Below, piece by piece: positions 235 through 31,823 of a stretch of DNA of 39,771 nucleotides; position 1 is the first letter of the stretch, and each line of letters opens with the position of its first letter. The DNA is from a virus. The position numbers and the translations under genes are program-made. The notes beneath the pieces were generated by a model that saw only the letters and a list, made by a program, of their open reading frames with translations, ran no database searches and was not told where the DNA came from. The stretch lies in the IMG/VR virus record IMGVR_UViG_3300045988_007823; one strand, 5' to 3'.

Positions 235-439
235 TGATTGTTTCTCCCTTTGCCCAGCGAATGAACGCAAGGCGGGGTATCTTCGTCCGGTTGCCGCTGC
301 GGAATGTCGGGAACGGCAAGCGCTCCGGGCAGTCACGCGCCATGAGGGTTATGGCATACGGCGAACATCCCAAGTACGCCGCCGCAACGTTCGAGGAAAT
401 GCATCCCTTGTCCATCGCCTCAATCTCTTCAAGTGTCAT
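212..439 (-). CDS. Excisionase/MerR-type helix-turn-helix DNA-binding protein, 75 aa.
   Basis: ATG at 439 lies 8 nt after GGGAGG. The segment AAYLGCSPYAITLMARD...TKIPRLAFIRWAKGE resembles Xis/AlpA-type HTH proteins. Confidence 0.6.
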   Translation of the reverse strand: MTLEEIEAMDKGCISSNVAAAYLGCSPYAITLMARDCPERLPFPTFRSGNRTKIPRLAFIRWAKGETINGDDRPV

Positions 440-1193
440 TTCGCGCGCCTCCCAAAAACTTATCAACGAAATATTTCTGACCTTTGCCGGTAACTTTCGG
501 CGTCCGGGCGGTGAAACTGCCGGTAGCGGATGAATGTACCGTTTCCTTGATGCGGAACAGCTCTAAATCCATGCTTCTCTGCGTCGGCATATTCTTGTCC
601 GAACCGCTATTGCACAGATAACCGTCCTTGCGCAGGATTTCAAAAAGCCGCTTCTCGCCAATGTCCACGCCGTTCTGCCGGATGATCTTTGCAAGGTCAC
701 GAATGAGGATGTCATCGTCCGCCGTGCTGATCGCATAGCCGAGAACGGTTGCCGGGCGGTCGGTCTCGATCTTCTCGGCGAGAGCCTGCCGGTGTTCCCG
801 TTCCTCCTTGAGCGCTGTAAGCACTTTAATCATAGAATCGGGGTCGGCAATCATTTTCTCGACCGTGTCCGGCGTGGCGTACATCCCGTGCTTGCGGATG
901 GACGGGATTACCTCATCGGCGATCTTTGCCTGAAACCGTTCCGCCGCTTCGTTCTTCGCTTTCATGGCGAGACGGTAGAAGATGTTTTCGGGGATGAAGT
1001 TGGGTCTTTCGCCACAAGTGGCGAAACCGAGTTCCGCGAGGTACTGTTCGACGCGCTTCCAACGAACAACCTCGTTGCCACTTGTGGCAACGGTCGTGAA
1101 TCCCAGACCGCGGGCGACGGCTTCCAGATTCAGATACGCCGTGCCGTCCTTTTCGTAGCAGCTCACGCCGCTGATTGTGATAATGTCGCTCAT
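429..1193 (-). CDS. ant: Phage antirepressor with a Bro-N-like N-terminal region and an ANT/KilAC-type C-terminal domain.
   Basis: 254-aa ORF. The motif ...RFQAKIADEVIPSIRKHGMY... is typical of Bro-N, and the C-terminal half resembles KilAC antirepressor domains. Confidence 0.85.
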   Translation of the reverse strand: MSDIITISGVSCYEKDGTAYLNLEAVARGLGFTTVATSGNEVVRWKRVEQYLAELGFATCGERPNFIPENIFYRLAMKAKNEAAERFQAKIADEVIPSIRKHGMYATPDTVEKMIADPDSMIKVLTALKEEREHRQALAEKIETDRPATVLGYAISTADDDILIRDLAKIIRQNGVDIGEKRLFEILRKDGYLCNSGSDKNMPTQRSMDLELFRIKETVHSSATGSFTARTPKVTGKGQKYFVDKFLGGARNDT

Positions 1194-4601: not shown

Positions 4602-5711
4602 ATGAATTGCCGTAAATGCAAAAAGGAAATACCGGAGAATAGCGCGTTCTGCCTGTTCTGTGGGGCGAAGCAACAGGTAACAGAGCGTAAACGCCGGAAG
4701 CGCGGGAACCAGCAGGGGAACGCGATCAAGCGCGGGAAAACGTGGACGGCACGCTGGACGGTGGCGACGCAGAATATCAACGGAGAAATAAGGCAAATCC
4801 GAAAGACGTTAGGAGGTTTCCCCACACAAACAGCGGCTCTGGCCTACGCTGCGAATCCTACAGAGCGGAAAGAAAAGCCAAAGTATACGCCGACGCTGAA
4901 AACGTACTATGATACATGGGAAGAAACCGCGCTGCCGAAGCTGAGTAAGTCAAAGCAATGCGCGTTTAAGATCGCGTGGAAGCGCTGGGAGGCCCTGCAC
5001 AATGAGCCGATATTCTCTCTGACCATCAACCAGCTACAGGCGTGTGTTGACGACCAGACGGAAACATATTACCCGGCGCGTGATATGAAAACCGTTATAT
5101 CCCATTTGTACCAGCGGGCATACGCCGAAGGATACGCGCGGGCGAATCTCGCGCAGTTTATCGAACTGCCGCCTCTGGATGAAAAAGAGCAGCAGCCGTT
5201 CACCGAAGAAGAAATAAAAAAGCTATGGAAAGCATACGACGATGGAGACCGTTTTCTCGCGTACCCTCTGTTGATGATATACAGCGGCATGATGCCCGGC
5301 GAGCTGATGCGCTGCACCGCCGATATGATCGACGTGGAGAAATGCGAGATCATCGGGTGCGGCATGAAAACGAAAAAGCGCAAGAGTACGCCGCTCGTCT
5401 TCCCGGACTGGATTGCGCCGATGGTTGCAGACATGGCCGCGAACGTCACCAGCCAAAAGGGCTATATCGTCGGAATGAACCGGGATAACTTCTATGATGA
5501 GTACCACGCGGCGTTACAACGCGCCGGGGTGCGCGATCTGCCGCCGTATTCCTGCCGCCACACAACGGCGACGGCGCTTGCGCTGGCTAAGACCGCGCCG
5601 TCTCTGATTCAAGAAATCATGCGGCACACGAAATTCTCCACAACGCAACGGTACATTCACCCAGACATGACAGACGCGCACGAAGCGGTAAACGTGTTGC
5701 GGCAATCGTGA
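4602..5711 (+). CDS. int: Tyrosine recombinase/integrase with an N-terminal zinc-ribbon.
   Basis: The N-terminus reads CRKC...CLFCG. The C-terminus reads ...SCRHTTATALA...IMRHTKFSTTQRYIHP, carrying the R, HxxR and Y catalytic signature. It lies adjacent to the attP core. Confidence 0.9.
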   Translation: MNCRKCKKEIPENSAFCLFCGAKQQVTERKRRKRGNQQGNAIKRGKTWTARWTVATQNINGEIRQIRKTLGGFPTQTAALAYAANPTERKEKPKYTPTLKTYYDTWEETALPKLSKSKQCAFKIAWKRWEALHNEPIFSLTINQLQACVDDQTETYYPARDMKTVISHLYQRAYAEGYARANLAQFIELPPLDEKEQQPFTEEEIKKLWKAYDDGDRFLAYPLLMIYSGMMPGELMRCTADMIDVEKCEIIGCGMKTKKRKSTPLVFPDWIAPMVADMAANVTSQKGYIVGMNRDNFYDEYHAALQRAGVRDLPPYSCRHTTATALALAKTAPSLIQEIMRHTKFSTTQRYIHPDMTDAHEAVNVLRQS

Positions 5712-5765
5712 TTCCCCAAAAGGGGAGAAAATCTGTTATTTCCCGTGTGCTTTATTACCGTTCCG

Positions 5766-5786
5766 TAGGTCACAAAATAGGTTACA
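5766..5786 (+). repeat. Left pair of candidate arm-type integrase sites (TAGGTCACA and TAGGTTACA).
   Basis: TAGGTCACA at 5766-5774 and TAGGTTACA at 5778-5786 are 12 nt apart. The same 9-mer recurs twice at 6038-6058 on the other side of the core. Confidence 0.55.
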
Positions 5787-5823
5787 ACACCAAAAAAACA
5801 TAGGAAAATCAATGGTTTTTCTA

Positions 5824-20773: not shown

Positions 20774-21994
20774 TCAACCCACGGTAACGGCGGCAGTACC
20801 GGACTTCGTGCCGTCCTGCTTGGAAGTCGCGGTAACGGTCAGCGCAGTATTCGTCTCGTTGGAGGCGATGGTCAGCGTGCCGTTCTCATCAATCTTCGTC
20901 CCAGCCTTAACAGCAGCCGTGCCGGAAACGCTCCACAGCACTCCGTTAGACACCGCACCCTCGCCGGTCACAGCGGCGGCAAACGCCTTGCTCGCACCCT
21001 TAGCAACGGTAGCGGTGGCCGGGGTTACGGTAACGGTGTTGACCGTACCGGCGGGAGCATACACCGCGAACGGGCAGTACTTCGACAGGGTATCGTTGTA
21101 CGCCGTCTTCGGGTTCGGGATTTCCCAGCCGAGACGCATAACCGCACGCAGAGCGACCATGTCATTCTGCATGAGGTTGTAAACGATGGAGTTGTCGGAA
21201 GGATCCTGCACAACGCCCTGATCGAAAATCTTGAACGTGATGTCCTGGCGAATGGAGTACACCAGCTCCGACCAGTCACCGGCAAACATAAGCGCCTTGG
21301 CAGTGTCAAAAGCGCCGTTGCGCGGGAAGTACATAGGAGATCCGTCCAGCGCATAAGGCGTCGCGCCCTGCATATCGGTTTTGAAGATGGGATTGCCGTT
21401 CAGGTCTTTCAGACCGCGCAGCTTCGCGCGCATCTGGATAGCGGACATAATGCCGTTGACGAGATAGCCGCTTTCCTCGACCTTGGCGATCACGCCGCCC
21501 TCGGCGAGAAGGTCATCATAGATGTACGGCGTCGCAGCCACGACGGAACCAGCCTTCGTGCAAGTCTCAAGGACGCTGTCGCGCCAAGAGGTGGGCTTGT
21601 TCGTGCCGAACAGGATCGCGCCGTCAATGACCTTACCGAACGCCTCGACCAGACGCGGGCGGACTTCGCCCCAGATGTCATAATCAGCATCGTCAAGCAC
21701 CGCCTCAGGAATGGGGACGATAACGGCGATCTCTTCGGCATAGATTTTCTTCTTGTCCCACTTCATCTTGGTAGTCTGCTTCATGCCGGTATCGCCGTTC
21801 ACGAAGTAGGCAGTGGGAAGCATGTCCAGAACGTTCATCGTCTGGGTCTTGCTCGTCATGTTGGGGAGACGGCGGCCCATCTGGAGGACGGCGCTGCCCT
21901 CGGTCACGCCCTGAATGATCTCACGGGTGACAGGTTCCGGGATAAGCCCGGAAAGGTCAGTTCTGTTTACAATGTTAGTAGCCATATTAGTCAT
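20774..21994 (-). CDS. Major capsid protein (HK97-type) with a C-terminal Ig-like (Big_2-type) domain.
   Basis: 406 aa. It follows the scaffold gene. The C-terminus reads TVTVTPATATVAKGASKAFAAAVTGEGAVSNGVLWSVSG...LTVTATSKQDGTKSGTAAVTV. Confidence 0.9.
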   Translation of the reverse strand: MTNMATNIVNRTDLSGLIPEPVTREIIQGVTEGSAVLQMGRRLPNMTSKTQTMNVLDMLPTAYFVNGDTGMKQTTKMKWDKKKIYAEEIAVIVPIPEAVLDDADYDIWGEVRPRLVEAFGKVIDGAILFGTNKPTSWRDSVLETCTKAGSVVAATPYIYDDLLAEGGVIAKVEESGYLVNGIMSAIQMRAKLRGLKDLNGNPIFKTDMQGATPYALDGSPMYFPRNGAFDTAKALMFAGDWSELVYSIRQDITFKIFDQGVVQDPSDNSIVYNLMQNDMVALRAVMRLGWEIPNPKTAYNDTLSKYCPFAVYAPAGTVNTVTVTPATATVAKGASKAFAAAVTGEGAVSNGVLWSVSGTAAVKAGTKIDENGTLTIASNETNTALTVTATSKQDGTKSGTAAVTVG

Positions 21995-22010: not shown

Positions 22011-22511
22011 TCATTTAAATTTGCCCCGAATAAGGGCGTTCATAGCGTCGTTCGTGCCATTAGCACTGTTGGCGCTGTTGCCGACGTGCGCGGACATATC
22101 CACACGCACGGAGGCGGGTTTGCGATCTTTCAGAAATTCGTCGGCTGCCTTTTCAAAGCTCACCGTGTCCGTCACTTTCTGCCCGATCTTAAAGCAGTAA
22201 AATTCCAGCTCATCAGCCGAAACGCCCTTTGCGGTCAGATACTTTTCCCGCTCAAACTGCGTAACCTTCGCTTCTGCGGCAAGTCGCGCCGCCTTTTCGG
22301 TGTCGCGCTCTTTCTCTATGCCTTTGAGCTTGTCCGCTTCGCTCTGCTGATTGGCTTTCCAAGCCTTATAAGCGTTCAATTCTTCCTCGCTGGGCATCCC
22401 TTTGGTTGCCCGCGCAAGACGCTTTGCAACGATGTTGTCTACTTCGGCCTGTGTGAAAGTAGCCTCGTTCCCGCCATCGGCGGTGTTGGGATTGGTATTC
22501 GGTTCTGCCAT
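22011..22511 (-). CDS. Capsid scaffolding protein.
   Basis: The start is set at ATG 22511, after GGAGG. It is an acidic, helical protein with a coiled-coil segment (EADKLKGIEKERDTEKAARLAAEAK) and lies directly upstream of the capsid gene. Confidence 0.8.
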   Translation of the reverse strand: MAEPNTNPNTADGGNEATFTQAEVDNIVAKRLARATKGMPSEEELNAYKAWKANQQSEADKLKGIEKERDTEKAARLAAEAKVTQFEREKYLTAKGVSADELEFYCFKIGQKVTDTVSFEKAADEFLKDRKPASVRVDMSAHVGNSANSANGTNDAMNALIRGKFK

Positions 22512-22530
22512 GATAATTCCTCCGTTTTCC

Positions 22531-22563
22531 GCCCGTCGGCGTATTCCGTTTATGCCCGTCGGC
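22531..22563. repeat. Two direct copies of GCCCGTCGGC spaced 23 bp, just upstream of the scaffold gene.
   Basis: The copies are at 22531-22540 and 22554-22563, between the 22564-22604 terminator and the scaffold RBS. Confidence 0.5.
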
Positions 22564-22604
22564 AAACAAAAAAGGAGCCTATCCCCGTTGGGACAAACTC
22601 CTTG
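22564..22604 (-). terminator. Intrinsic terminator downstream of the tRNA region.
   Basis: On the minus strand AAGGAG..TCCC-aacg-GGGA..CTCCTT is followed by TTTTTTGTTT. Confidence 0.6.
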
Positions 22605-22734
22605 AATGTTTTATTAAATTGCGGCTCGTGCGGGCGTTCCCTCCCGCGTCAACCGCGCCGGGCAGCCGTAAGCGCCCGGTGCCACAGCGAGCGAACCCGC
22701 CATGCGCTCTTGCACGATTTAATGACGCCTTACT

Positions 22735-22808
22735 TGGCGGCGCGAGCTGGACTTGAACCAGCAACAACAGGTTCAGAGCCTGTTGTGTTCCCGTTACACC
22801 ATCGCGCT
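22735..22808 (-). tRNA. tRNA-Gln(CUG), 74 nt with encoded CCA.
   Basis: Hand-folded cloverleaf: acceptor AGCGCGA/TCGCGCC with position 1-72 as A-C, D arm GTGT-AACGGGA-ACAC, anticodon arm ACAGG-CTCTGAA-CCTGT, variable loop TGTT, T arm GCTGG-TTCAAGT-CCAGC, discriminator G, CCA. Confidence 0.85.
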
Positions 22809-22974
22809 ATATGCATGGCCGCTGTTGAGCAGTAGCGGCACGGTATTTGTATCCCCCTCCGCAGGGGCAAGACAGAGGGAAAGGAAGGAAACCCCTGCCG
22901 AAGCAAGACCGTTATTTCTGTACCCGCCACAAGGTCAGGCGGCGCTCTCTGTTATGCTTTTGAAGAATAGGTAT

Positions 22975-23004
22975 AGAAAAAGCACCGTGTGTTTACACGA
23001 TGCT
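22975..23004 (-). terminator. Strong intrinsic terminator after the immunity-like gene.
   Basis: On the minus strand AGCATCGTGT-aaac-ACACGGTGCT forms 10 bp with one G-U pair and is followed by TTTTTC. Confidence 0.75.
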
Positions 23005-23252
23005 TAAATACTAAGATATTTGTCTGTGTTTTCTCGCTTCTCGATAACAATTCCGTCCGCGCCTTTTCGCGCTGTCAAAAGTATTTCAGCGGGAGATTCA
23101 TCAAGTAGCCCGGCAGAGGAGCTTGCATTGTTCGCTCGTTGAATGAACAATACATTATTGTTCCCGCACCGAGGGCTTGTCTTGACTTTTTCATAGTCTA
23201 AATTGTTCGCCTTGCAAAACTCTTGTATCGCAAGCAAAAAAACATCAAACAT
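23004..23252 (-). CDS. Small hypothetical protein of 82 aa, a candidate immunity partner of the MuF C-terminal domain.
   Basis: It lies immediately downstream of the MuF gene, in the same visibly AT-rich patch, and is followed by a strong terminator. Confidence 0.55.
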   Translation of the reverse strand: MFDVFLLAIQEFCKANNLDYEKVKTSPRCGNNNVLFIQRANNASSSAGLLDESPAEILLTARKGADGIVIEKRENTDKYLSI

Positions 23253-23258
23253 ATTCGA

Positions 23259-24950
23259 TCACTCCGTGGAAAAGCACATATAACGTCCGAGCGAATTGTA
23301 AATGACGCTTGTTTTTTGTCCAAACGCTTTCAAAACTTCATAGTCACCACCGGAAGCTATCAATGTATTCTCGTCCGATCCCGGGTGGGTATGACCACTC
23401 CATCTATATCCATTATACGCTAATTCCTTAGCTTTTGCAATGTCAATATTAACCTTTGTGCTGCTTCCACGGATGATAAGTCTTTCTCCGCCTTTTGTAA
23501 ACAGAGCATATTCGACACCAGTCTTGGCGGTAAGAGCGCTAAGATCGTTTAGGCTTACATCCGCTTTCCTTACGGTTACTCTGGAATCATATTCGGTGAG
23601 CCGTGACAAGAGATTTTCTTGCCTCTTATTCAACTCGACATTATATTGCAATACTGCAGATGGTCTGCCTTTTGCCGTATTCCTTGAGTTTACCGGACTG
23701 TTTATTTGCTGCCTATCAAGATAATCTTTGTTTGCTTTTGCAGCTTCTCGCGCTTCTTTTGGCCCAAACTCCGCGATGTTTCCGCGCTCGTATTGTGGCC
23801 TTAGTCCCGCCGCCTTGCTGAACGCCTTGTATTCCTCGTTGAGACGACGATACCGCACTGCCTTGGTGGTATACTCCTCGTCATCTCCGCGCCCTTTGGC
23901 GGCGATCAGCTCACGTTTAACTTTACGTAGCGATGCCTCAACCTGTCTTTGCTTTTGCGTCGCCTCGTAAAAGGTGTACTGCTTGCCATCAAACTCAAAA
24001 GGCGGCGGATCAATGTTCTCCAATTCCTCATCGGTATACGTCCGCTCGGAGACGCCCTCGATCCAGATGTGGTACATATGGCGGCAGTTAGCGCCGCACA
24101 AGCCGTCCACCTCGTCAAGACCGCAGACCTCATATATAGACGGGTAAATATCGCCGGTACGGACGGAATAAACGCGCCCCTGCCATTTCTTGTGGCTCGC
24201 CCATGGCGTTTTTCCCTCTCCGTCACGCGCTCCGCGGTGAGCTGTAACCTCTCTGTACGGCGTGTCCATCAACGTCGCCGTCTGCTCGGTGTATTGCCGG
24301 GAAAGCTGGGTAACGCCCGTCATAACAGCTCTGCGGGCAGCAACATCAACACGGTTATGCCAACCGGATTCATAGTCAACATACTGCAAGCCGCTGTCCG
24401 TCAGCATCTTCGTTGCGTCACGGATCGCCACGTTATAGCTCTGCCCGCTCTCCACGCGCATCAAGGCATCGTCAAGCACGCGCTGGTACATCCTGCCTAT
24501 ATCATCGACCTTTACCGTGCCGTCCGGCGCTCTGTACGCAAAGCCCATGCTTCGGGTAATGTTCGTCAGCTCTCCAAGCGTCTGCATCTCAATGGCGTTG
24601 ATTTCCTGAACGAACAGGTCAGCATTGAAGTTGTTTTCGCCGAGAATGAGGTTGTCGTCGATCAGCGTATCAAAATACTGCTGATTGCGTTGAACGGCCT
24701 TGTTCCATGCGGCGTCAAACTCGCTCTGCGTGAGCTTTAGGGTCTTCCTGATATACTCGTTGATTTTCTTGTAATCATATCCCCGCCGCTGCAAAGACCG
24801 TATATGCTCTATTGCCGTCTCCGTCATTTCTCCGGTCATGGCAACACGGGAGCATATGTCCTCAAGGATTTGCTCTTCTAAACGCTGATAGAGCCGCATA
24901 AGCGGCAGTGGCAGGGAGTACATGAACTCCGGCGTGATCGGGTATTTCAT
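23259..24950 (-). CDS. MuF/SPP1-gp7-like minor head protein fused to a ~170-aa C-terminal extension with an HxH...SxxD motif.
   Basis: 563 aa. The N-terminal two thirds are head-morphogenesis-like (..CGANCRHMYHIW..). The C-terminus reads ..GVEYALFTKGGERLIIRG...RWSGHTHPGSDENTLIASGGDYEVL... Confidence 0.85.
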   Translation of the reverse strand: MKYPITPEFMYSLPLPLMRLYQRLEEQILEDICSRVAMTGEMTETAIEHIRSLQRRGYDYKKINEYIRKTLKLTQSEFDAAWNKAVQRNQQYFDTLIDDNLILGENNFNADLFVQEINAIEMQTLGELTNITRSMGFAYRAPDGTVKVDDIGRMYQRVLDDALMRVESGQSYNVAIRDATKMLTDSGLQYVDYESGWHNRVDVAARRAVMTGVTQLSRQYTEQTATLMDTPYREVTAHRGARDGEGKTPWASHKKWQGRVYSVRTGDIYPSIYEVCGLDEVDGLCGANCRHMYHIWIEGVSERTYTDEELENIDPPPFEFDGKQYTFYEATQKQRQVEASLRKVKRELIAAKGRGDDEEYTTKAVRYRRLNEEYKAFSKAAGLRPQYERGNIAEFGPKEAREAAKANKDYLDRQQINSPVNSRNTAKGRPSAVLQYNVELNKRQENLLSRLTEYDSRVTVRKADVSLNDLSALTAKTGVEYALFTKGGERLIIRGSSTKVNIDIAKAKELAYNGYRWSGHTHPGSDENTLIASGGDYEVLKAFGQKTSVIYNSLGRYMCFSTE

Positions 24951-26365
24951 TCATTTTCGCCCGATACAAGCGCCTCCATCTTCGGCAGGGCGGCTTTTGC
25001 CGTCGCCTCGTCTTCGTTCATATAGCGCATTCTGAACTCATACGGCTGCATGATCCCCATCTGCACCATACGCGCATCTCGGTTAAATTCTGATTCCTTG
25101 TCCTCAATGATGGAATCATCGAAATCAACCGTGATCTCAACGTCCTCGTCCAGCCCGGCGTTCATGTAAGCATTGCCCATTCGGAGCAGGACGCGGCACA
25201 GCTCAATGAGAACGCTTTCAAGGATGATCTCGTGCTTTTTAATCGTGCGGAACATCTCAGAGTTTTCGCTTATGATCTGCGTCGCTGTGGAGACATTGCC
25301 ATTGTCGTATTTGTAATGGTTCTCGCCGAATCCGCACTTGCTCGACAGAAGATTAAGCATATCCTGAATCCCGGCGTTGTGTTCCGCCGTGCGAAGGTTC
25401 ATGTTGATCTCTTTGATGATATCGCCGTCCTTCCCGTCGGCAGGGAGAACATAAAAAACAACGTCGCTTGTATCGAAGAGCGGCTCTCCCGTGTGGAAAT
25501 TCTTTGTCGCCTGCGGCTTGATCATGACGCGCTTCTTGCCAAGCTGGAACTCGTTCACATAGCTGTCGTATGTCAGGTCAACACCCTTTAGCTGATCTAT
25601 GGCGTTGGCAAATACCGAAATGCCCATCGGCAGGGTTGCATCAACGTTGTTGACGATGTTGAGCCGGTCAATGACGAACATCCGCTGCGTGAATGGCGTA
25701 TGCACGACCGGAGCAACGTTTTCAAACCCCGGAACATCGGCAAGTTTCACCTCTGACAGACTGCCCTTTGTGTCACGATACAAAAGGTTTTCGATGTCGT
25801 ATGTTCCCTTTTCCGTTCGCTTGTGGATGCAGATGTAAAGGTAAGAATCTTTCTTTATTGCCTTGTGCGATCCGAACGCGCATTCGGTTACGATGCCGTT
25901 CTCCCATGTAAGAGGAAGAATAAGGTCAGCCGGTACATAGTCAATGCGGATTTCCCCGCCGCTGCCGTTCACCTTGCCTGTCTGCTCATCAACAGACGCA
26001 TTAACGACCGTCGGAACATAAGCAACCGTGCCGCGCGCCGCCTTGATCTCCTGCATCTCGTTCGATTTGACGGTGAAGTTGTTCCGCTCAAAAACGGAAT
26101 CGATGAAAGCCTGCTCTGGCTTCCCCTCGAGCGTTATCTTGCATTTTTCGTTCAGCAAAAGGTTCGCCCAATCCTCACAAACCTTTTTCGCCATGCCGAG
26201 AGAGTACAGGCGGCACTGGACGAACTTCATGCCGTTCCAGATGCGGTACCGGTGGAACTGTTTCACGTAACCGTCATACCAGCTCTTCCAATTCTCTATG
26301 TAAGTGTAAAACTCTTCCGGCACGGTTGTATATCCCCGCGCCCGTAAAACCTCGTAAATGTTCAT
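24947..26365 (-). CDS. Portal protein (SPP1 gp6-like).
   Basis: 472 aa. It lies between the terminase and the MuF gene. ATGA overlap with MuF. Confidence 0.85.
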   Translation of the reverse strand: MNIYEVLRARGYTTVPEEFYTYIENWKSWYDGYVKQFHRYRIWNGMKFVQCRLYSLGMAKKVCEDWANLLLNEKCKITLEGKPEQAFIDSVFERNNFTVKSNEMQEIKAARGTVAYVPTVVNASVDEQTGKVNGSGGEIRIDYVPADLILPLTWENGIVTECAFGSHKAIKKDSYLYICIHKRTEKGTYDIENLLYRDTKGSLSEVKLADVPGFENVAPVVHTPFTQRMFVIDRLNIVNNVDATLPMGISVFANAIDQLKGVDLTYDSYVNEFQLGKKRVMIKPQATKNFHTGEPLFDTSDVVFYVLPADGKDGDIIKEINMNLRTAEHNAGIQDMLNLLSSKCGFGENHYKYDNGNVSTATQIISENSEMFRTIKKHEIILESVLIELCRVLLRMGNAYMNAGLDEDVEITVDFDDSIIEDKESEFNRDARMVQMGIMQPYEFRMRYMNEDEATAKAALPKMEALVSGENE

Positions 26366-27928
26366 TTATGCTTTCACTCCGTACAATCTGAAAACTCTTT
26401 CGAGCGCATAGCGCGTGCTGTCTATTGTATGGTTGTCCTTGTCCGGGTATCCGCTTATCACGTTGCCTTCCCGGTCTCGCTCAAATTCGTAATTTACAAA
26501 CTCTCGGTAAACCGTCGGCGTCCTCTCCGGGTCAATGATAAATTTCCGGTTCTGTAACCACTTCATTCCGTACTCGACGCTTCCCGGCCCTTTGATTGCA
26601 GCAAAAGCGTCCACGCCACAGGCTCGGAAATCATCGACACTCTTCGTCTCCGCGCGGTCGCAAGTCACGGGGAAATCGTCATATCCGCGGCTCTTTATCC
26701 ACTCGGCATTGTCCGCGTTGCTCGTCTTGTTGTTGCAATGCTCATCAATAAAATATATCGTCTCATGCGCTACGTCATAATGAACACGAACAAAGGCGTA
26801 AATGTCCGGGTAATATCCCCAGTCAACGCCTTGGTATATCCGGTCGAAGTGTTTTATCTCGTCGTCCGTTATCCGTCTTGCCTCTATGTTATCAAAAACG
26901 TTTCCGCCGTCGCCGTTCGGAATGCCGAGATATTCATGCTCGTATGCCGACGGATTAACCTCTTTCAGATGTTCTGCGTCGTTGAGAAACATCGTTCCGA
27001 GCCATTCGGCGGGAGCGTCCATATAGGTTGAGTGATGGACAATGCGGTTTTTGTCCGGCTCTAAAAGCTGCTGATTCACCCAGTTTGCGCGGCTCTTTGG
27101 CGGGTTGTACGATCCGAAGAAATAGGAATCAACGCCGCCGCGGAGTACCGACTGCTTAACGCTTCGTTCTTCCGCAGCCCCGGCGAGCTGGTCGCGTTCT
27201 TCTATCCAGAGAATCCCTATATACCCAAATGGCGGTTTTATAGATTTCAACTTTACCGGATCGTCGCAGCCTCGAAAATATATCTTTTGCCCGGTCTTCT
27301 TAAGCGTAATCTCCGGCGGGTGAGTTTTGAAATCAAATTCGCTATAAAGCCCCATCTCGTTTATTGCCCATTGGATTTGCGAAAACACACTGTCCTTTAA
27401 CGTGTTCGTCTGCTTTCGCACAACACAAGCGTGCATCATGGGGTTGTTTTTCAAAAGCTCTGTTAGCTTTTCCGAAATATACGTCGATTTCAGACCACCG
27501 CGCCCGCCCTCAAAGATATAGTCCTTGTTCGGCTCGATCTGCCGGTTGATGTCAACAAAAGCCTTTCCAATAAGGTCATCAGGAATCCTGCACGGCTTAT
27601 CCTCTGCCGCCGCGTCGTTTGTCCAGTTTTCCCACCGGTCAACTGCTCTGTCATCGCCGCTTATCGCCTTGCCGTATACGCCCGCTACAATAGCGGCATT
27701 ACATGTCATGTCCTCGTCATCAATGGCGAGACCGGCGCGCGTGATCTGGCTTTTGAGCTTTTCCGGCGCGGGCTGCTGTGCTATCGACTTTGCGATGTTT
27801 GCGAGGCTCTTGTTTTCTCTCTTTGCCTCGCCGGAGGCTATGCCTCCTTTTCGGCCATTTTTCACGGCTTCATCACGGCTTTGATCCGATGTAAAGTGCT
27901 TGAGGTTATCTTCTTTTTTGCGTGGCAT
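26366..27928 (-). CDS. terL: Terminase large subunit (PBSX-like) with an N-terminal ~100-aa small-subunit-like extension.
   Basis: 520 aa. Walker A-like GGRGGLKST. The N-terminus MPRKKE...GRKGGIASGEAKRENK... resembles the TerS proteins of many Firmicutes phages. Confidence 0.85.
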   Translation of the reverse strand: MPRKKEDNLKHFTSDQSRDEAVKNGRKGGIASGEAKRENKSLANIAKSIAQQPAPEKLKSQITRAGLAIDDEDMTCNAAIVAGVYGKAISGDDRAVDRWENWTNDAAAEDKPCRIPDDLIGKAFVDINRQIEPNKDYIFEGGRGGLKSTYISEKLTELLKNNPMMHACVVRKQTNTLKDSVFSQIQWAINEMGLYSEFDFKTHPPEITLKKTGQKIYFRGCDDPVKLKSIKPPFGYIGILWIEERDQLAGAAEERSVKQSVLRGGVDSYFFGSYNPPKSRANWVNQQLLEPDKNRIVHHSTYMDAPAEWLGTMFLNDAEHLKEVNPSAYEHEYLGIPNGDGGNVFDNIEARRITDDEIKHFDRIYQGVDWGYYPDIYAFVRVHYDVAHETIYFIDEHCNNKTSNADNAEWIKSRGYDDFPVTCDRAETKSVDDFRACGVDAFAAIKGPGSVEYGMKWLQNRKFIIDPERTPTVYREFVNYEFERDREGNVISGYPDKDNHTIDSTRYALERVFRLYGVKA

Positions 27929-27959: not shown

Positions 27960-28097
27960 CTATAATATGTCAGGCGTTAGCTTTCGACTTCTTAATTTTC
28001 CCCTTTTTTGCTGGCGCTGAATGAATTTCTGCATGTCCCGTTTTAGATACGGACTGTTCGTTTTCGCTATGATTGCCTTCGCTTCTTCAATCGTCAT
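27960..28097 (-). CDS. Possible 45-aa basic ORF (MTIEEAKAIIAKTNSPYLKRDMQKFIQRQQKRGKLRSRKLTPDIL).
   Basis: The ATG overlaps the methyltransferase stop region and the RBS is only moderate. A weak hairpin plus T tract follows. Confidence 0.3.
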   Translation of the reverse strand: MTIEEAKAIIAKTNSPYLKRDMQKFIQRQQKRGKLRSRKLTPDIL

Positions 28098-29292
28098 GGA
28101 GCAGCACCGCTTCCTTTCCTGTGAACTTCTGCCAACGGTCTATAATCACATCAACAAATTTCGGGTCAAACTCCATGCAGTATGCACGCCGTCCGTTCTG
28201 CTCAGCCGCCATGATCGTAGTGCCAGAGCCAGAGAATAAATCAAGCACATTCTCTCCCGGCTTACTCGAGCACTGCATTTGATAGTCAAACAACTTAATC
28301 GGCTTCATCGTCGGATGTTCCGCAGATCGCAGTGGCTTATCAAAATTCAGAACCGTTGTCTGGCGGCGGTTTTTGAAGAAATAATGCGATTTCCCCTTTG
28401 TCCACCCGTATAAACAAGGCTCGTGTTCGTTTTCTTCTGTTTCGCTCTCGCCGTAAAGGCATGGCTCGTGCCGCCATTGAAAGTCCTGCCGTCCGAGAAC
28501 CATCGAATTCTTCACCCATATAAGGCATTGCCGAACACGCAGCATTGCATCACGGCACGCACCGCGAAAATTGTACCCCTCACTGTCGGCGTGCCAAATA
28601 TAAAACGGCGCTCCCGGCTTCATCACCGCCGCGGCATTGGAGAATGCGTCTGTGAGGAATCGGCGAAACGCGGTATCTTCCATGTTATCGTTTTTAATCT
28701 TTCCGGCGGTGCCCTGATAGTCCACATTGTACGGCGGGTCGGTGAGAAGCAAATCCATCTGTGCCCCTCCCACAAGACTTTGTACGTCCGTCAAAGACGT
28801 ACTGTCTCCGCACATGAGGCGATGGTCGCCAAGCTGGTACACATCGCCCATTTTGCTTTTCGGCTCTTGCGGAAGGACAGGATCGTAATCATCTTCGACA
28901 ACGGAATCGTCCAGCTCGTCACGCAGACCCCAGTCAAAATCAAACGCTGACAGGTCGATCTCCGGCAACTCCATCGAAAGAAGATCCATGTCCCAATCGC
29001 TCTCGTTGGTCTTATTGTCCACGAGGCGCAGGGCGTTTACCTGTTCCGGCGTTAGATCATCTACACAGACACACGGAACGGCTTCCATTCCCAACTTCTT
29101 CGCCGCCAGAACGCGGCAATGGCCGATGACGATCACGCCGTCGCGGTCGATTACTACAGGCTGGACAAATCCGTATTGCCGGATGCTCTCCGCCACGTTG
29201 TCGATCTGCCGCTTACCGTGCTTCTTTGCGTTCCGCGCATACGGCACGATTTCCCCAATGGGGATATTTTTTACATCCATAACCTTCTCCAT
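28087..29292 (-). CDS. ParB-like nuclease domain fused to a beta-class N6A/N4C DNA methyltransferase.
   Basis: The N-terminal ParB-N-like segment reads IGEIVPYARNAKKHGKRQIDNVAESIRQYGFVQPVVI. Motif IV TDPPYN precedes motif I DLFSGSGTT. Confidence 0.85.
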   Translation of the reverse strand: MEKVMDVKNIPIGEIVPYARNAKKHGKRQIDNVAESIRQYGFVQPVVIDRDGVIVIGHCRVLAAKKLGMEAVPCVCVDDLTPEQVNALRLVDNKTNESDWDMDLLSMELPEIDLSAFDFDWGLRDELDDSVVEDDYDPVLPQEPKSKMGDVYQLGDHRLMCGDSTSLTDVQSLVGGAQMDLLLTDPPYNVDYQGTAGKIKNDNMEDTAFRRFLTDAFSNAAAVMKPGAPFYIWHADSEGYNFRGACRDAMLRVRQCLIWVKNSMVLGRQDFQWRHEPCLYGESETEENEHEPCLYGWTKGKSHYFFKNRRQTTVLNFDKPLRSAEHPTMKPIKLFDYQMQCSSKPGENVLDLFSGSGTTIMAAEQNGRRAYCMEFDPKFVDVIIDRWQKFTGKEAVLLHDD

Positions 29293-30612: not shown

Positions 30613-30892
30613 TGTTCTTCCTTTCTCCGTAACTACAAAAATCATTATCGTTTGTTGTGAACGGTGTGTGCCAGCATCCACAATCACACCGCTCGTCTTC
30701 CGGGTCTCGGTGTTTGCAGTCCTTGCAATGCACGACCGGCTCATACCCGAGCTGCGCGGCCATACGCTTAAACTGGCTGCGGGTGGGGCGGTCAATCTCG
30801 ACCGTCGGAATCTTTTTCATTTCCTCGATTACGAGATCGGAAACGTATATTCCGTTCTGCGGGCTTTCTGCGTCAATCAAGCGCATTTTCAT
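30590..30892 (-). CDS. Cys-rich zinc-ribbon-type protein of 100 aa, paralog of 30316..30612.
   Basis: It contains VVHCKDCKHRDPEDERCDCGCW...DFCSYGERK. Confidence 0.6.
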   Translation of the reverse strand: MKMRLIDAESPQNGIYVSDLVIEEMKKIPTVEIDRPTRSQFKRMAAQLGYEPVVHCKDCKHRDPEDERCDCGCWHTPFTTNDNDFCSYGERKNNGSEDRA

Positions 30893-31766
30893 AATCCTCC
30901 CAAATGTTTACTTGTCCCGGAAGAACGCCGTCCTCCATCCACCAGTGGAACACGTCTTCTCCTGTTCCCCAGCGCATATCGTTAGCCTTCCCGCTGGCTT
31001 TTCGCGCTTCGAGCATTCGCTCGAAAGCTCGTATGTAATTCCTTTGATATGCAGGATATCGAGCAAATTCGGCGTAACGATTTTTCCTCGCCACTGGGCA
31101 TCCTACGCAACCAACGCGGCAGAAGCCCTCGTTGTACAACGGGTTCACTTCGACCTTTTGATCGGTAAGGTAATCCCACACGTCACGATCCGTCCAGTCG
31201 ATGATGGGATTGCAGACACGCTTGCCTTTCATCTGGCAATTTTCAAAAAGCTGTCGGTCTTCCTCGTTGTCATTGTTTAGGATTAGTTTTTTCTTACGGT
31301 CAGAATTTTGCACTTCCAGCGCCCCACTGGTTGTTGCTCTTTTGGTAGATTCTGCCCACCGGACACCTGTGACGACGAATCGGTCTTTGCCTGCTGTTTC
31401 TTTCAATACCGCGCAGCAATATCGTGCAATTCGCGTCGGCGGCATGAGTTTCTTCGGTATCAAGTCCCACATCGAAGTGCGTTTCCCCTGATATGTCGGA
31501 AGAATTATCGTGTACTTGATGCCTTTTTCTTCGTACTCTTTGGCGCGTTTTCGCACGTGATATACCGTCTCTGGCGCGTCCGCTGTCGTATGGGAATGGC
31601 ATATTTCAAACGGGATTCCGGCATTTTCGGCGAGCTTACAGATTACAGCGCTATCTTTGCCGCCGCTGTCGGTCAGCAGTAGCGGCTGCTTATACAGTTT
31701 CAACGACATTTGCGATGCAAGATGCAGACGCTCCATTGCGGTCTGTTCCAAATCCGTCATTGCCAT
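30873..31766 (-). CDS. PAPS reductase-family PP-loop ATP pyrophosphatase (IbrA/DndC-like) with a C-terminal Cys cluster.
   Basis: It has the SGGKDS PP-loop motif (LLLTDSGGKDSAV) and the C-terminal CRVGCVGCP. The start is set at ATG 31766, after a GGGGGG/GGTG-rich RBS. Confidence 0.8.
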   Translation of the reverse strand: MAMTDLEQTAMERLHLASQMSLKLYKQPLLLTDSGGKDSAVICKLAENAGIPFEICHSHTTADAPETVYHVRKRAKEYEEKGIKYTIILPTYQGKRTSMWDLIPKKLMPPTRIARYCCAVLKETAGKDRFVVTGVRWAESTKRATTSGALEVQNSDRKKKLILNNDNEEDRQLFENCQMKGKRVCNPIIDWTDRDVWDYLTDQKVEVNPLYNEGFCRVGCVGCPVARKNRYAEFARYPAYQRNYIRAFERMLEARKASGKANDMRWGTGEDVFHWWMEDGVLPGQVNIWEDYENALD

Positions 31767-31823
31767 TCCGAACACCCCCCATTCCACCGCCACACACAGC
31801 GGTGGCATTTGCCATAGCAGGGT

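Follow-up and report, generated by a model that had tools for sequence, protein, structure and literature searches.

The 39,771-nt IMG/VR virus record IMGVR_UViG_3300045988_007823 (hereafter the window, meaning this stretch at its full length) encodes on its minus strand a 563-residue minor head protein of the MuF2 type, whose C-terminal part forms an exchangeable cassette together with an 82-residue gene directly downstream. The best explanation, to which we assign a probability of about 0.6, is that a temperate siphophage of gut Clostridia carries here a cassette of the MuF polymorphic toxin (effector) type, consisting of a domain which is probably a JAB-like metal hydrolase and of its cognate immunity protein. 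The cassette belongs, as an ordinary member, to a class already known, that of the MuF polymorphic toxins, and is not categorically new. What it adds is a family of toxin-like domains that had gone unannotated, together with a new family of partner proteins. Both open reading frames (ORFs) had been singled out in an initial annotation of the window, and they are present on the minus strand together with the two peptide strings quoted there.

Exchange of the C-Terminal Region Among Near-Identical Phages

A scan of IMG/VR recovered 52 MuF relatives, 37 of which are 96–98% identical to the protein of the window over residues 1–395. The slot behind this shared part is empty in 18 of the 37, where the MuF protein comprises 392–414 residues. 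Eight further relatives possess a MuF protein of 569–570 residues carrying the toxin domain Ntox50 (PF15542, E 3.5e-18) and followed by a downstream ORF of its own of about 65 residues, and the other 11 encode a MuF protein of 590–591 residues with an unannotated 183-residue domain and, again, their own downstream ORF of 58 residues. The window's C-terminal domain is found in none of these 37 phages, and none of 54 GenBank phage matches obtained by tblastn reaches its JAB-like core, as all of them stop at residue ~366–468. The ortholog comparison clearly shows that MuF proteins do not keep the C-terminal region as a structural element common to all relatives, a point which the initial annotation had named as decisive for its proposal that the cassette is swapped between phages. 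The swap itself is seen directly, since no domain, Ntox50 or an unknown domain follow one and the same junction.

The third cassette (L012 4186–4921 and ten similar loci), in which the 183-residue domain ends in ...FDGYVYFTAKSDLIKHYQESLGATLI..., yields no Pfam match for either the domain or the 58-residue ORF and could represent a further MuF payload, likewise undescribed, that comes with a partner of its own. One other locus (L041 3001–4179) contains Ntox50-cassette DNA with the same blastn pattern as L011, yet its MuF ORF ends at 392 residues, which may reflect an inactivated toxin or an assembly error.

The borders of the exchanged unit can be placed closely. In blastn comparisons, DNA homology to the relatives ends at position 23733 (23767 against the Ntox50 form). 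Where a relative has a cassette, homology restarts at the terminator, at 23005–23007, and in the short forms it does so at 22961. The limits at 23733 and 23005–23007 define 23006..23733 as the exchanged unit. The part of the MuF gene upstream of it is 91–93% identical at the DNA level to that of relatives with a different cassette or with none at all. The GC content amounts to 0.41–0.45 over ~22900–23800 vs 0.53–0.60 on either flank, and the exchanged unit is the stretch of lowest GC content among all 728-bp stretches of the 39.8-kb window (0.422; window mean 0.531, standard deviation 0.033). The terminator that closes it has a folding energy of −16.5 kcal/mol (z = −5.5 vs shuffles); it is common to relatives with other cassettes and absent from the short-form relatives. 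The AT-richer patch, its closure by a strong terminator and the interval of 23004–23760 put forward in the initial annotation are all borne out, the last of these very nearly so.

When GC content is taken over 728 bp at a time, only one other stretch of the window (5531–6458), situated just downstream of the integrase gene, falls below 0.45; it could represent a moron or the region of an attachment site.

Linkage of the Domain to Its Downstream Partner

The 82-residue gene begins immediately behind the MuF gene (Table 1), with a Shine-Dalgarno sequence (GGAG) situated within the last MuF codons, 9 nt ahead of its ATG. A single-sequence search with the 82-residue protein returns close relatives only. 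However, the genes directly downstream of distant homologues of the C-terminal domain are clearly homologous to it, and a profile built from these genes recovers 450 partners (~450 clusters at 90% identity), nearly all of which measure 83–88 residues.

The linkage was quantified at 80 loci from GTDB species-representative genomes, which hold 82 copies of the domain. A partner homologue follows 79 of the 82 copies, its start lying 1–76 nt past the stop codon of the domain gene (301 nt in one case), and the two genes are adjacent in all six independent contexts that were inspected. Conversely, all 52 MuF relatives without the domain are also without a partner homologue. Domain and partner also co-diverge (Mantel r 0.66, p 0.001). 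On this comparative evidence the 82-residue gene is the true cognate partner of the domain, in line with the dedicated companion that had been suspected from its position.

The AlphaFold 2 (AF2) model of the partner (predicted local distance difference test score, pLDDT, 88) shows a small alpha+beta fold of four strands and three helices. A fold search with this model gave no significant match in the PDB, the best being YwmB, frataxin and the immunity protein PIM7, all at E ≥ 0.5, and no NTF2-fold structure is among the Foldseek matches listed. A ubiquitin-like or beta-grasp identity was considered and rejected in view of this fold, of the lack of a C-terminal Gly-Gly conserved in the alignments and of the absence of any ubiquitin-like structure from the fold matches listed. 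Sigma-70-like sites number six in 22950–23760 as compared to 1.5 ± 1.3 in shuffled sequences. Together with the promoter matches within the domain-coding region (Table 1), they give a hint that the partner might be transcribed independently of the MuF gene in lysogens.

An Unannotated Domain Family on MuF Scaffolds and in Stand-Alone Pairs

The 148 C-terminal residues have 241 homologues at 54–93% identity, nearly all of them unnamed proteins from metagenome-assembled genomes (MAGs) of Oscillospiraceae, Ruminococcus and other Clostridia. A profile search of 1.84 billion representatives expanded the family to 750 clusters (50% identity) at E ≤ 1e-3, 548 of them at E ≤ 1e-10, and the domain is always C-terminal. 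Among the 60 members of at least 390 residues, the N-terminal parts belong to MuF1 (PF04233) in 27 cases, MuF2 in 20, VG15 in three, the portal protein in two and a prohead protease in one. The occurrence of the domain is confined to MuF or portal scaffolds and stand-alone pairs. The median pairwise identity within the family is 0.60.

Sequence searches with the domain against Pfam, NCBIfam, PADLOC, PHROG and the PDB produced no accepted family match, and nothing in PADLOC recurs for the family. The single-sequence matches of the 148 residues in Pfam, PHROGs and the PDB, namely tRNA-synt_His (E 0.027) and ribosomal protein L9 (E 0.16), were dismissed as noise. The family profile matched only plant-virus coat proteins in the PDB (E ≥ 0.09), which was judged to be chance. 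The isoelectric points of the domain (9.35 in the copy of the window, family median 7.9) and of the partner (5.3, family median 5.9) are uninformative.

A strongly conserved extension of ~40 residues precedes the JAB-like core (residues 416–455, positions 23586–23705). Its consensus reads PIEQRNTGKGNPNAIL..LNNRQ..LL, it stands right behind the start codon in the stand-alone proteins, and RadC has no counterpart of it. A few copies of the domain lie on MAG contigs labeled Prevotella, Bacteroides uniformis or Bacteroidales (L104, L105, L106, and L114), the rest being from Clostridia; these labels could stem from binning contamination or from spread across phyla.

The 82 genomic copies comprise 39 stand-alone genes (~153–162 residues), 18 of MuF size, 13 of intermediate size, eight cut by contig ends and four short ORFs which retain the MuF end-motif NC[RHK]C. 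Since 39 of the copies are stand-alone pairs without a delivery domain, delivery is not essential to the function of the pair. These pairs, with a partner of 83–88 residues and 1–13 nt between the genes, occupy ordinary chromosomal settings. At two loci (L009 8001–8725 and L010 1234–1958), a 153-residue domain gene and an 85-residue partner are inserted between the genes for chorismate synthase (aroC) and chorismate mutase/prephenate dehydratase (pheA-type), with no phage genes within 8 kb. Another stand-alone pair resides among genes for leucine-rich repeat surface proteins, beside an IS110 element. Judging from these free-standing pairs, the module may have a second role as a toxin-antitoxin-like element.

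Two loci (L136 and L120) contain two copies of the pair within 6 kb, and two partner paralogues on one contig (P0178 and P0234) bear the locus tags IJ446_04550 and IJ446_04560, two numbering steps apart. Such two-copy loci and neighboring paralogues suggest tandem cassette arrays.

Conserved Residues and Predicted Fold of the Domain

A Glu, an HxH and an SxxD element in the C-terminal domain had initially been compared to the active site of JAB/MPN metallopeptidases. These elements are present as Glu480, His520, His522, Ser533, and Asp536. The distance from Glu to the first His is 40 residues and not about 50 as first estimated, and the His-to-Ser spacing is indeed longer than in RadC-type JAB domains (10 vs 7 residues). 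An alignment of 121 sequences shows Glu65, His107, and Asp121 (numbering of the 148-residue query) to be invariant, with conservation of 90% or more at His105 and Ser118. In an alignment of the 60 long members, the Glu, both His and the Ser are invariant and the Asp is at least 90% conserved. Judging by this conservation, the E...HxH...SxxD motif is more than chance, and its residues are candidates for a catalytic site.

The AF2 model of the domain (pLDDT 94; predicted template modeling score 0.87) follows the order helix, strand, strand, helix, strand (with HxH at its end), helix (with SxxD at its start), strand, strand. The RadC-like protein YicR of Escherichia coli is laid onto the domain by hhalign in this order of secondary-structure elements. 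Against an alignment of 12 RadC sequences, hhalign gave a score of 22.8 (P 0.004–0.006) with Glu, HxHP, and SxxD in register over 92 columns, exceeding all 30 column-shuffled controls (maximum 18.8) as well as the reversed control (9.5). The alignment places a 3-residue gap exactly at the His-to-Ser spacer, which accounts for its greater length. A comparison with lambda gpK was discarded, as hhalign aligned the 6-residue HxHPG string alone.

The top Foldseek matches in the PDB are mostly MPN proteins (CSN6, EMC8/9, eIF3f/h, the BRCC36 partner, and 2kcq), accompanied by deaminases. The viral fold matches of the domain include a homologous minor capsid protein (template modeling score, TM, 0.89), other minor capsid proteins and, among the weak ones, a JAB protein resembling RadC as well as a tail component. 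In profile searches, none of the 121 members matches the JAB models PF01398, PF14464, PF04002, or PF14220 at E ≤ 1, nor does the domain of the window at E ≤ 10. The JAB/MPN resemblance noted at the outset therefore stands as far as the conserved motif and the fitting order of secondary-structure elements are concerned, while the lack of a JAB Pfam match, the weak Foldseek matches and an hhalign P of 0.004 do not sustain a firm assignment. A derived JAB/RadC-like metal hydrolase would be the most likely fold, unproven as it is, and sequence and model together favor it at slightly better than even odds.

Proposed Function and Alternative Explanations

The following sequence of events would be consistent with these findings. 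The MuF2 domain (residues 1 to ~405) would act as a portal-associated head component that carries the C-terminus into the capsid, and the C-terminal domain would enter the next host cell together with the DNA, as may be expected from what is known of SPP1 gp7 and MuF proteins (PMC5576092; PMC5512222). The C-terminal ~150 residues would represent the exchangeable payload, gained jointly with the 82-residue gene as a block of lower GC content, presumably through recombination that spanned the stretch from the MuF linker (GPKEAREAxKA...) to the terminator. The payload itself would most likely be a small metal-dependent hydrolase with a highly derived JAB/RadC-like fold acting on nucleic acid or peptide, in which His520, His522, and Asp536 may bind the metal, Glu480 may serve as general base and Ser533 may support catalysis. 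The domain is probably harmful to cells and neutralized through binding by its partner, because the partner is strictly linked to it and because Ntox50 occupies the same slot. The 82-residue protein would most likely bind the domain one-to-one and thereby protect the producing cell and lysogens.

Several observations weigh against a toxin cassette with a JAB-like domain. No known toxin or JAB model matches the domain. In spite of the confident model, the Foldseek matches in the PDB are weak (best E 0.035, TM ≤ 0.35), and the hhalign probability for RadC is just 6–8%. LXG, RHS, type VI secretion system (T6SS)-type or other polymorphic-toxin modules are absent among the 60 long members, and about 75% of MuF toxin domains have homologues in other polymorphic-toxin families (PMC5576092), which fits poorly with the scaffolds on which this domain occurs. 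Finally, the delivery domain is missing from the 39 stand-alone copies.

The first alternative retains a toxin-immunity cassette and assigns the catalytic domain to another or new fold, for instance one related to deaminases or metallophosphoesterases, with a convergent E...HxH...SxxD motif. The low TM values, the deaminases among the weak fold matches, the His-to-Ser spacer of 10 instead of 7 residues and the failure of all 121 members to match JAB Pfam models agree with this view, as do the weak matches of 20 of these 121 members to the metallophosphoesterase PdeM in NCBIfam (best E 0.0055). The PdeM matches were attributed to the shared GHTH string and rejected, as there is no GNHE-type or other phosphoesterase motif among the conserved positions and no metallophosphoesterase among the fold matches listed. 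A deaminase toxin was likewise set aside, since the family has no conserved Cys and no deaminase motif of the form HxE or CxE followed by PCxxC. Furthermore, the order of secondary-structure elements and all four motif elements agree with the RadC JAB domain in the hhalign comparison, and MPN proteins dominate the top PDB matches. A non-JAB fold consequently appears rather unlikely, at roughly one chance in five.

According to a second alternative, the domain is an injected effector for host takeover or anti-defense, that is, an isopeptidase or other hydrolase which disables a host defense such as ubiquitin-like (Ubl) conjugation, and the 82-residue protein is its inhibitor or a packaging chaperone. 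MuF fusions have been proposed to carry effectors that act early (PMC5512222), JAB domains of the classical type act as Ubl peptidases (PMC3482391), the domain resides on MuF or portal scaffolds only and not on those of interbacterial secretion, and the median identity within the family suggests a conserved target. On the other hand, near-identical phages hold a recognized toxin domain, Ntox50, in the same slot, the stand-alone chromosomal pairs are hard to explain for an injected factor, and a tightly linked neutralizer implies an activity harmful to the producer. In addition, none of the copies examined has E1, E2, Ubl, CBASS or Bil genes nearby. Given this absence and a partner that is not a beta-grasp protein, the ubiquitin-like or defense target suggested in the initial annotation finds no backing, and an anti-defense effector in general is doubtful.

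In a more specific and still less probable form, the domain would not be a growth toxin. As an isopeptidase or protease of the JAB type, it would be delivered with the virion and take apart host protein conjugation or another defense on entry, with the partner as a stoichiometric inhibitor and the chromosomal pairs as host-side regulators or decoys. If this were true, it would represent a new class of injected anti-defense enzyme, widespread in phages of gut Clostridia. A structural or maturation role in the head protein, such as an autoprocessing protease for assembly next to an unrelated 82-residue ORF, is effectively refuted by the ortholog comparison, for although the domain belongs to a head-morphogenesis gene and its metalloprotease-like motif could act in cis, the extension is absent from 18 and unrelated in 19 of the 37 near-identical phages, domain and partner strictly go together in their distribution, and both also occur as stand-alone pairs outside phages.

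Genomic Context and Feature Coordinates

The head module of the window is arranged on the minus strand in the order TerL, SPP1-type portal, 563-residue ORF, 82-residue ORF, terminator, tRNA-Gln, scaffold and capsid (Table 1). The MuF gene lies immediately downstream of the portal gene and overlaps its stop codon by 4 nt. Residues 6–377 of its product match PF06152 (Phage_min_cap2; E 1.4e-75, 255 bits vs a cut-off of 26.3), the domain which has been named MuF2 (Jamet et al., 2017; PMC5576092). An identical 563-residue protein is encoded on 112 contigs, one of them 191 kb in length, and is listed in 222 index blocks. The phage is temperate, as the window also encodes an integrase (4602..5711) and an anti-repressor (429..1193), and its host group would be gut Clostridia.

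TABLE 1. Coordinates of the head module and of the features within the cassette.
Feature	Position	Strand	Basis or remark
TerL	26366..27928	-	Upstream of portal gene
SPP1-type portal gene	24947..26365	-	PF05133, E 1.7e-17
563-residue MuF2-type minor head protein with C-terminal extension	23259..24950	-	PF06152; phrog_581 minor head protein
Conserved MuF scaffold part, residues 1 to ~405	23734..24950	-	GC 0.541; blastn breakpoints
Exchangeable cassette (~158 last MuF codons and partner gene)	23006..23733	-	728 bp, GC 0.422
Probably JAB-like domain, unannotated family, residues 416–563	23262..23705	-	241 homologues; AF2 pLDDT 94
Putative catalytic span	23343..23513	-	Codon positions and conservation
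Codons of Glu480; His520; His522; Ser533; Asp536	23511-23513; 23391-23393; 23385-23387; 23352-23354; 23343-23345	-	
Three sigma-70-like promoter matches in the domain-coding region, upstream of the partner	23295..23501	-	10/12 positions each
82-residue cognate partner, immunity- or antitoxin-like (predicted)	23004..23252	-	Starts 6 nt past MuF stop codon
Intrinsic terminator closing the cassette	22980..23005	-	11-bp stem, then U-run
tRNA-Gln(CTG)	22735..22808	-	
DUF4355-type scaffold protein	22011..22565	-	
HK97-type major capsid protein	20774..21994	-	PF05065

A second indel of ~190 bp, which holds the tRNA-Gln gene (22620–22810), is located between the cassette and the scaffold gene. This segment is absent from the short forms L015, L016, and L025 and present in L012; it is unmatched in L011, where the flanking alignments lie ~120 bp apart. 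The C-terminal residues 318–398 of the capsid protein show a weak Ig-like Big_2 match below the Pfam cut-off. Upstream of the packaging module, the window encodes a ParB-like/DNA methyltransferase fusion (28087–29292; phrog_498, E 4e-153) and a PAPS-reductase-like gene (30873–31808; phrog_424).

Comparison With Known Systems

MuF toxins are abundant in phages of the human gut, and 33% of gut MuF extensions contain no known domain (PMC5576092). Judged by the library searches, the present domain belongs to this fraction, part of which is now named and bounded by a domain family and a partner family with candidate catalytic residues. The set of naturally near-isogenic phages carrying no payload, Ntox50, an unknown payload or the putative JAB-like domain furthermore makes the effect of the payload on the infected cell and on the lysogeny decision testable.

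The cassette shares the hallmarks of MuF polymorphic toxins (Zhang et al., 2012, PMC3482391; Jamet et al., 2017, PMC5576092), namely a MuF2 N-terminus, a position behind the portal gene, a variable C-terminus, a small ORF of fewer than 150 residues right downstream, a temperate phage of gut Firmicutes and sister phages with a listed MuF toxin domain, Ntox50, in the same slot. The differences are that its domain matches no library that was searched and that none of the 60 long members scanned pairs it with another polymorphic-toxin scaffold.

Two toxin domains, Tox-JAB-1 and Tox-JAB-2 (DUF4329), have been described with an E, H[ST]H, S, D signature and were suggested to be possible nucleases rather than Ubl peptidases; their listed carriers are the type II secretion system (T2SS), T6SS, type VII secretion system (T7SS) and TcdB/TcaC, with MuF not among them (Zhang et al., 2012; PMC3482391). 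The present domain resembles them in this signature, in its C-terminal position on a polymorphic toxin, in the adjacent putative immunity gene and in its divergence from Ubl-processing JABs. It differs from Tox-JAB-1 and Tox-JAB-2 by the spacer of 10 vs 7 residues and by the MuF scaffold, and it is distinct from Tox-JAB-2 at the sequence level, with no DUF4329 (PF14220) match in the 121 members. The partner, in turn, is unlike those of the Imm-NTF2-2 and Imm65 families in being an 82-residue alpha+beta protein with no NTF2-fold structure among its listed matches. As the literature found covers Tox-JAB-1 and Tox-JAB-2 by prediction and sequence analysis only, the domain is a tractable candidate for the biochemistry of JAB-like toxins.

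Mobile elements and polyvalent proteins contain RadC-like JAB domains (PF04002), small prokaryotic domains of the JAB type as the present one would be, borne on phage or plasmid proteins for which early delivery is assumed (Iyer et al., 2017; PMC5512222). Glu, HxHP, SxxD and two C-terminal strands are in register between RadC and the present domain in the hhalign comparison, a likeness that is weak (P 0.004, probability 6–8%). Unlike RadC, the domain possesses a 3-residue insertion between HxH and Ser and the unique conserved N-terminal extension of ~40 residues (PIEQRNTGKGNP...), and RadC has no dedicated small partner gene.

Finally, the 39 free-standing copies recall type II toxin-antitoxin systems, being two-gene modules scattered over chromosomes and found even inside housekeeping operons. 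In contrast to such systems, the putative neutralizer is encoded downstream, the reverse of the usual gene order, the partner has no detectable DNA-binding domain, and the same module is also found fused to virion proteins.

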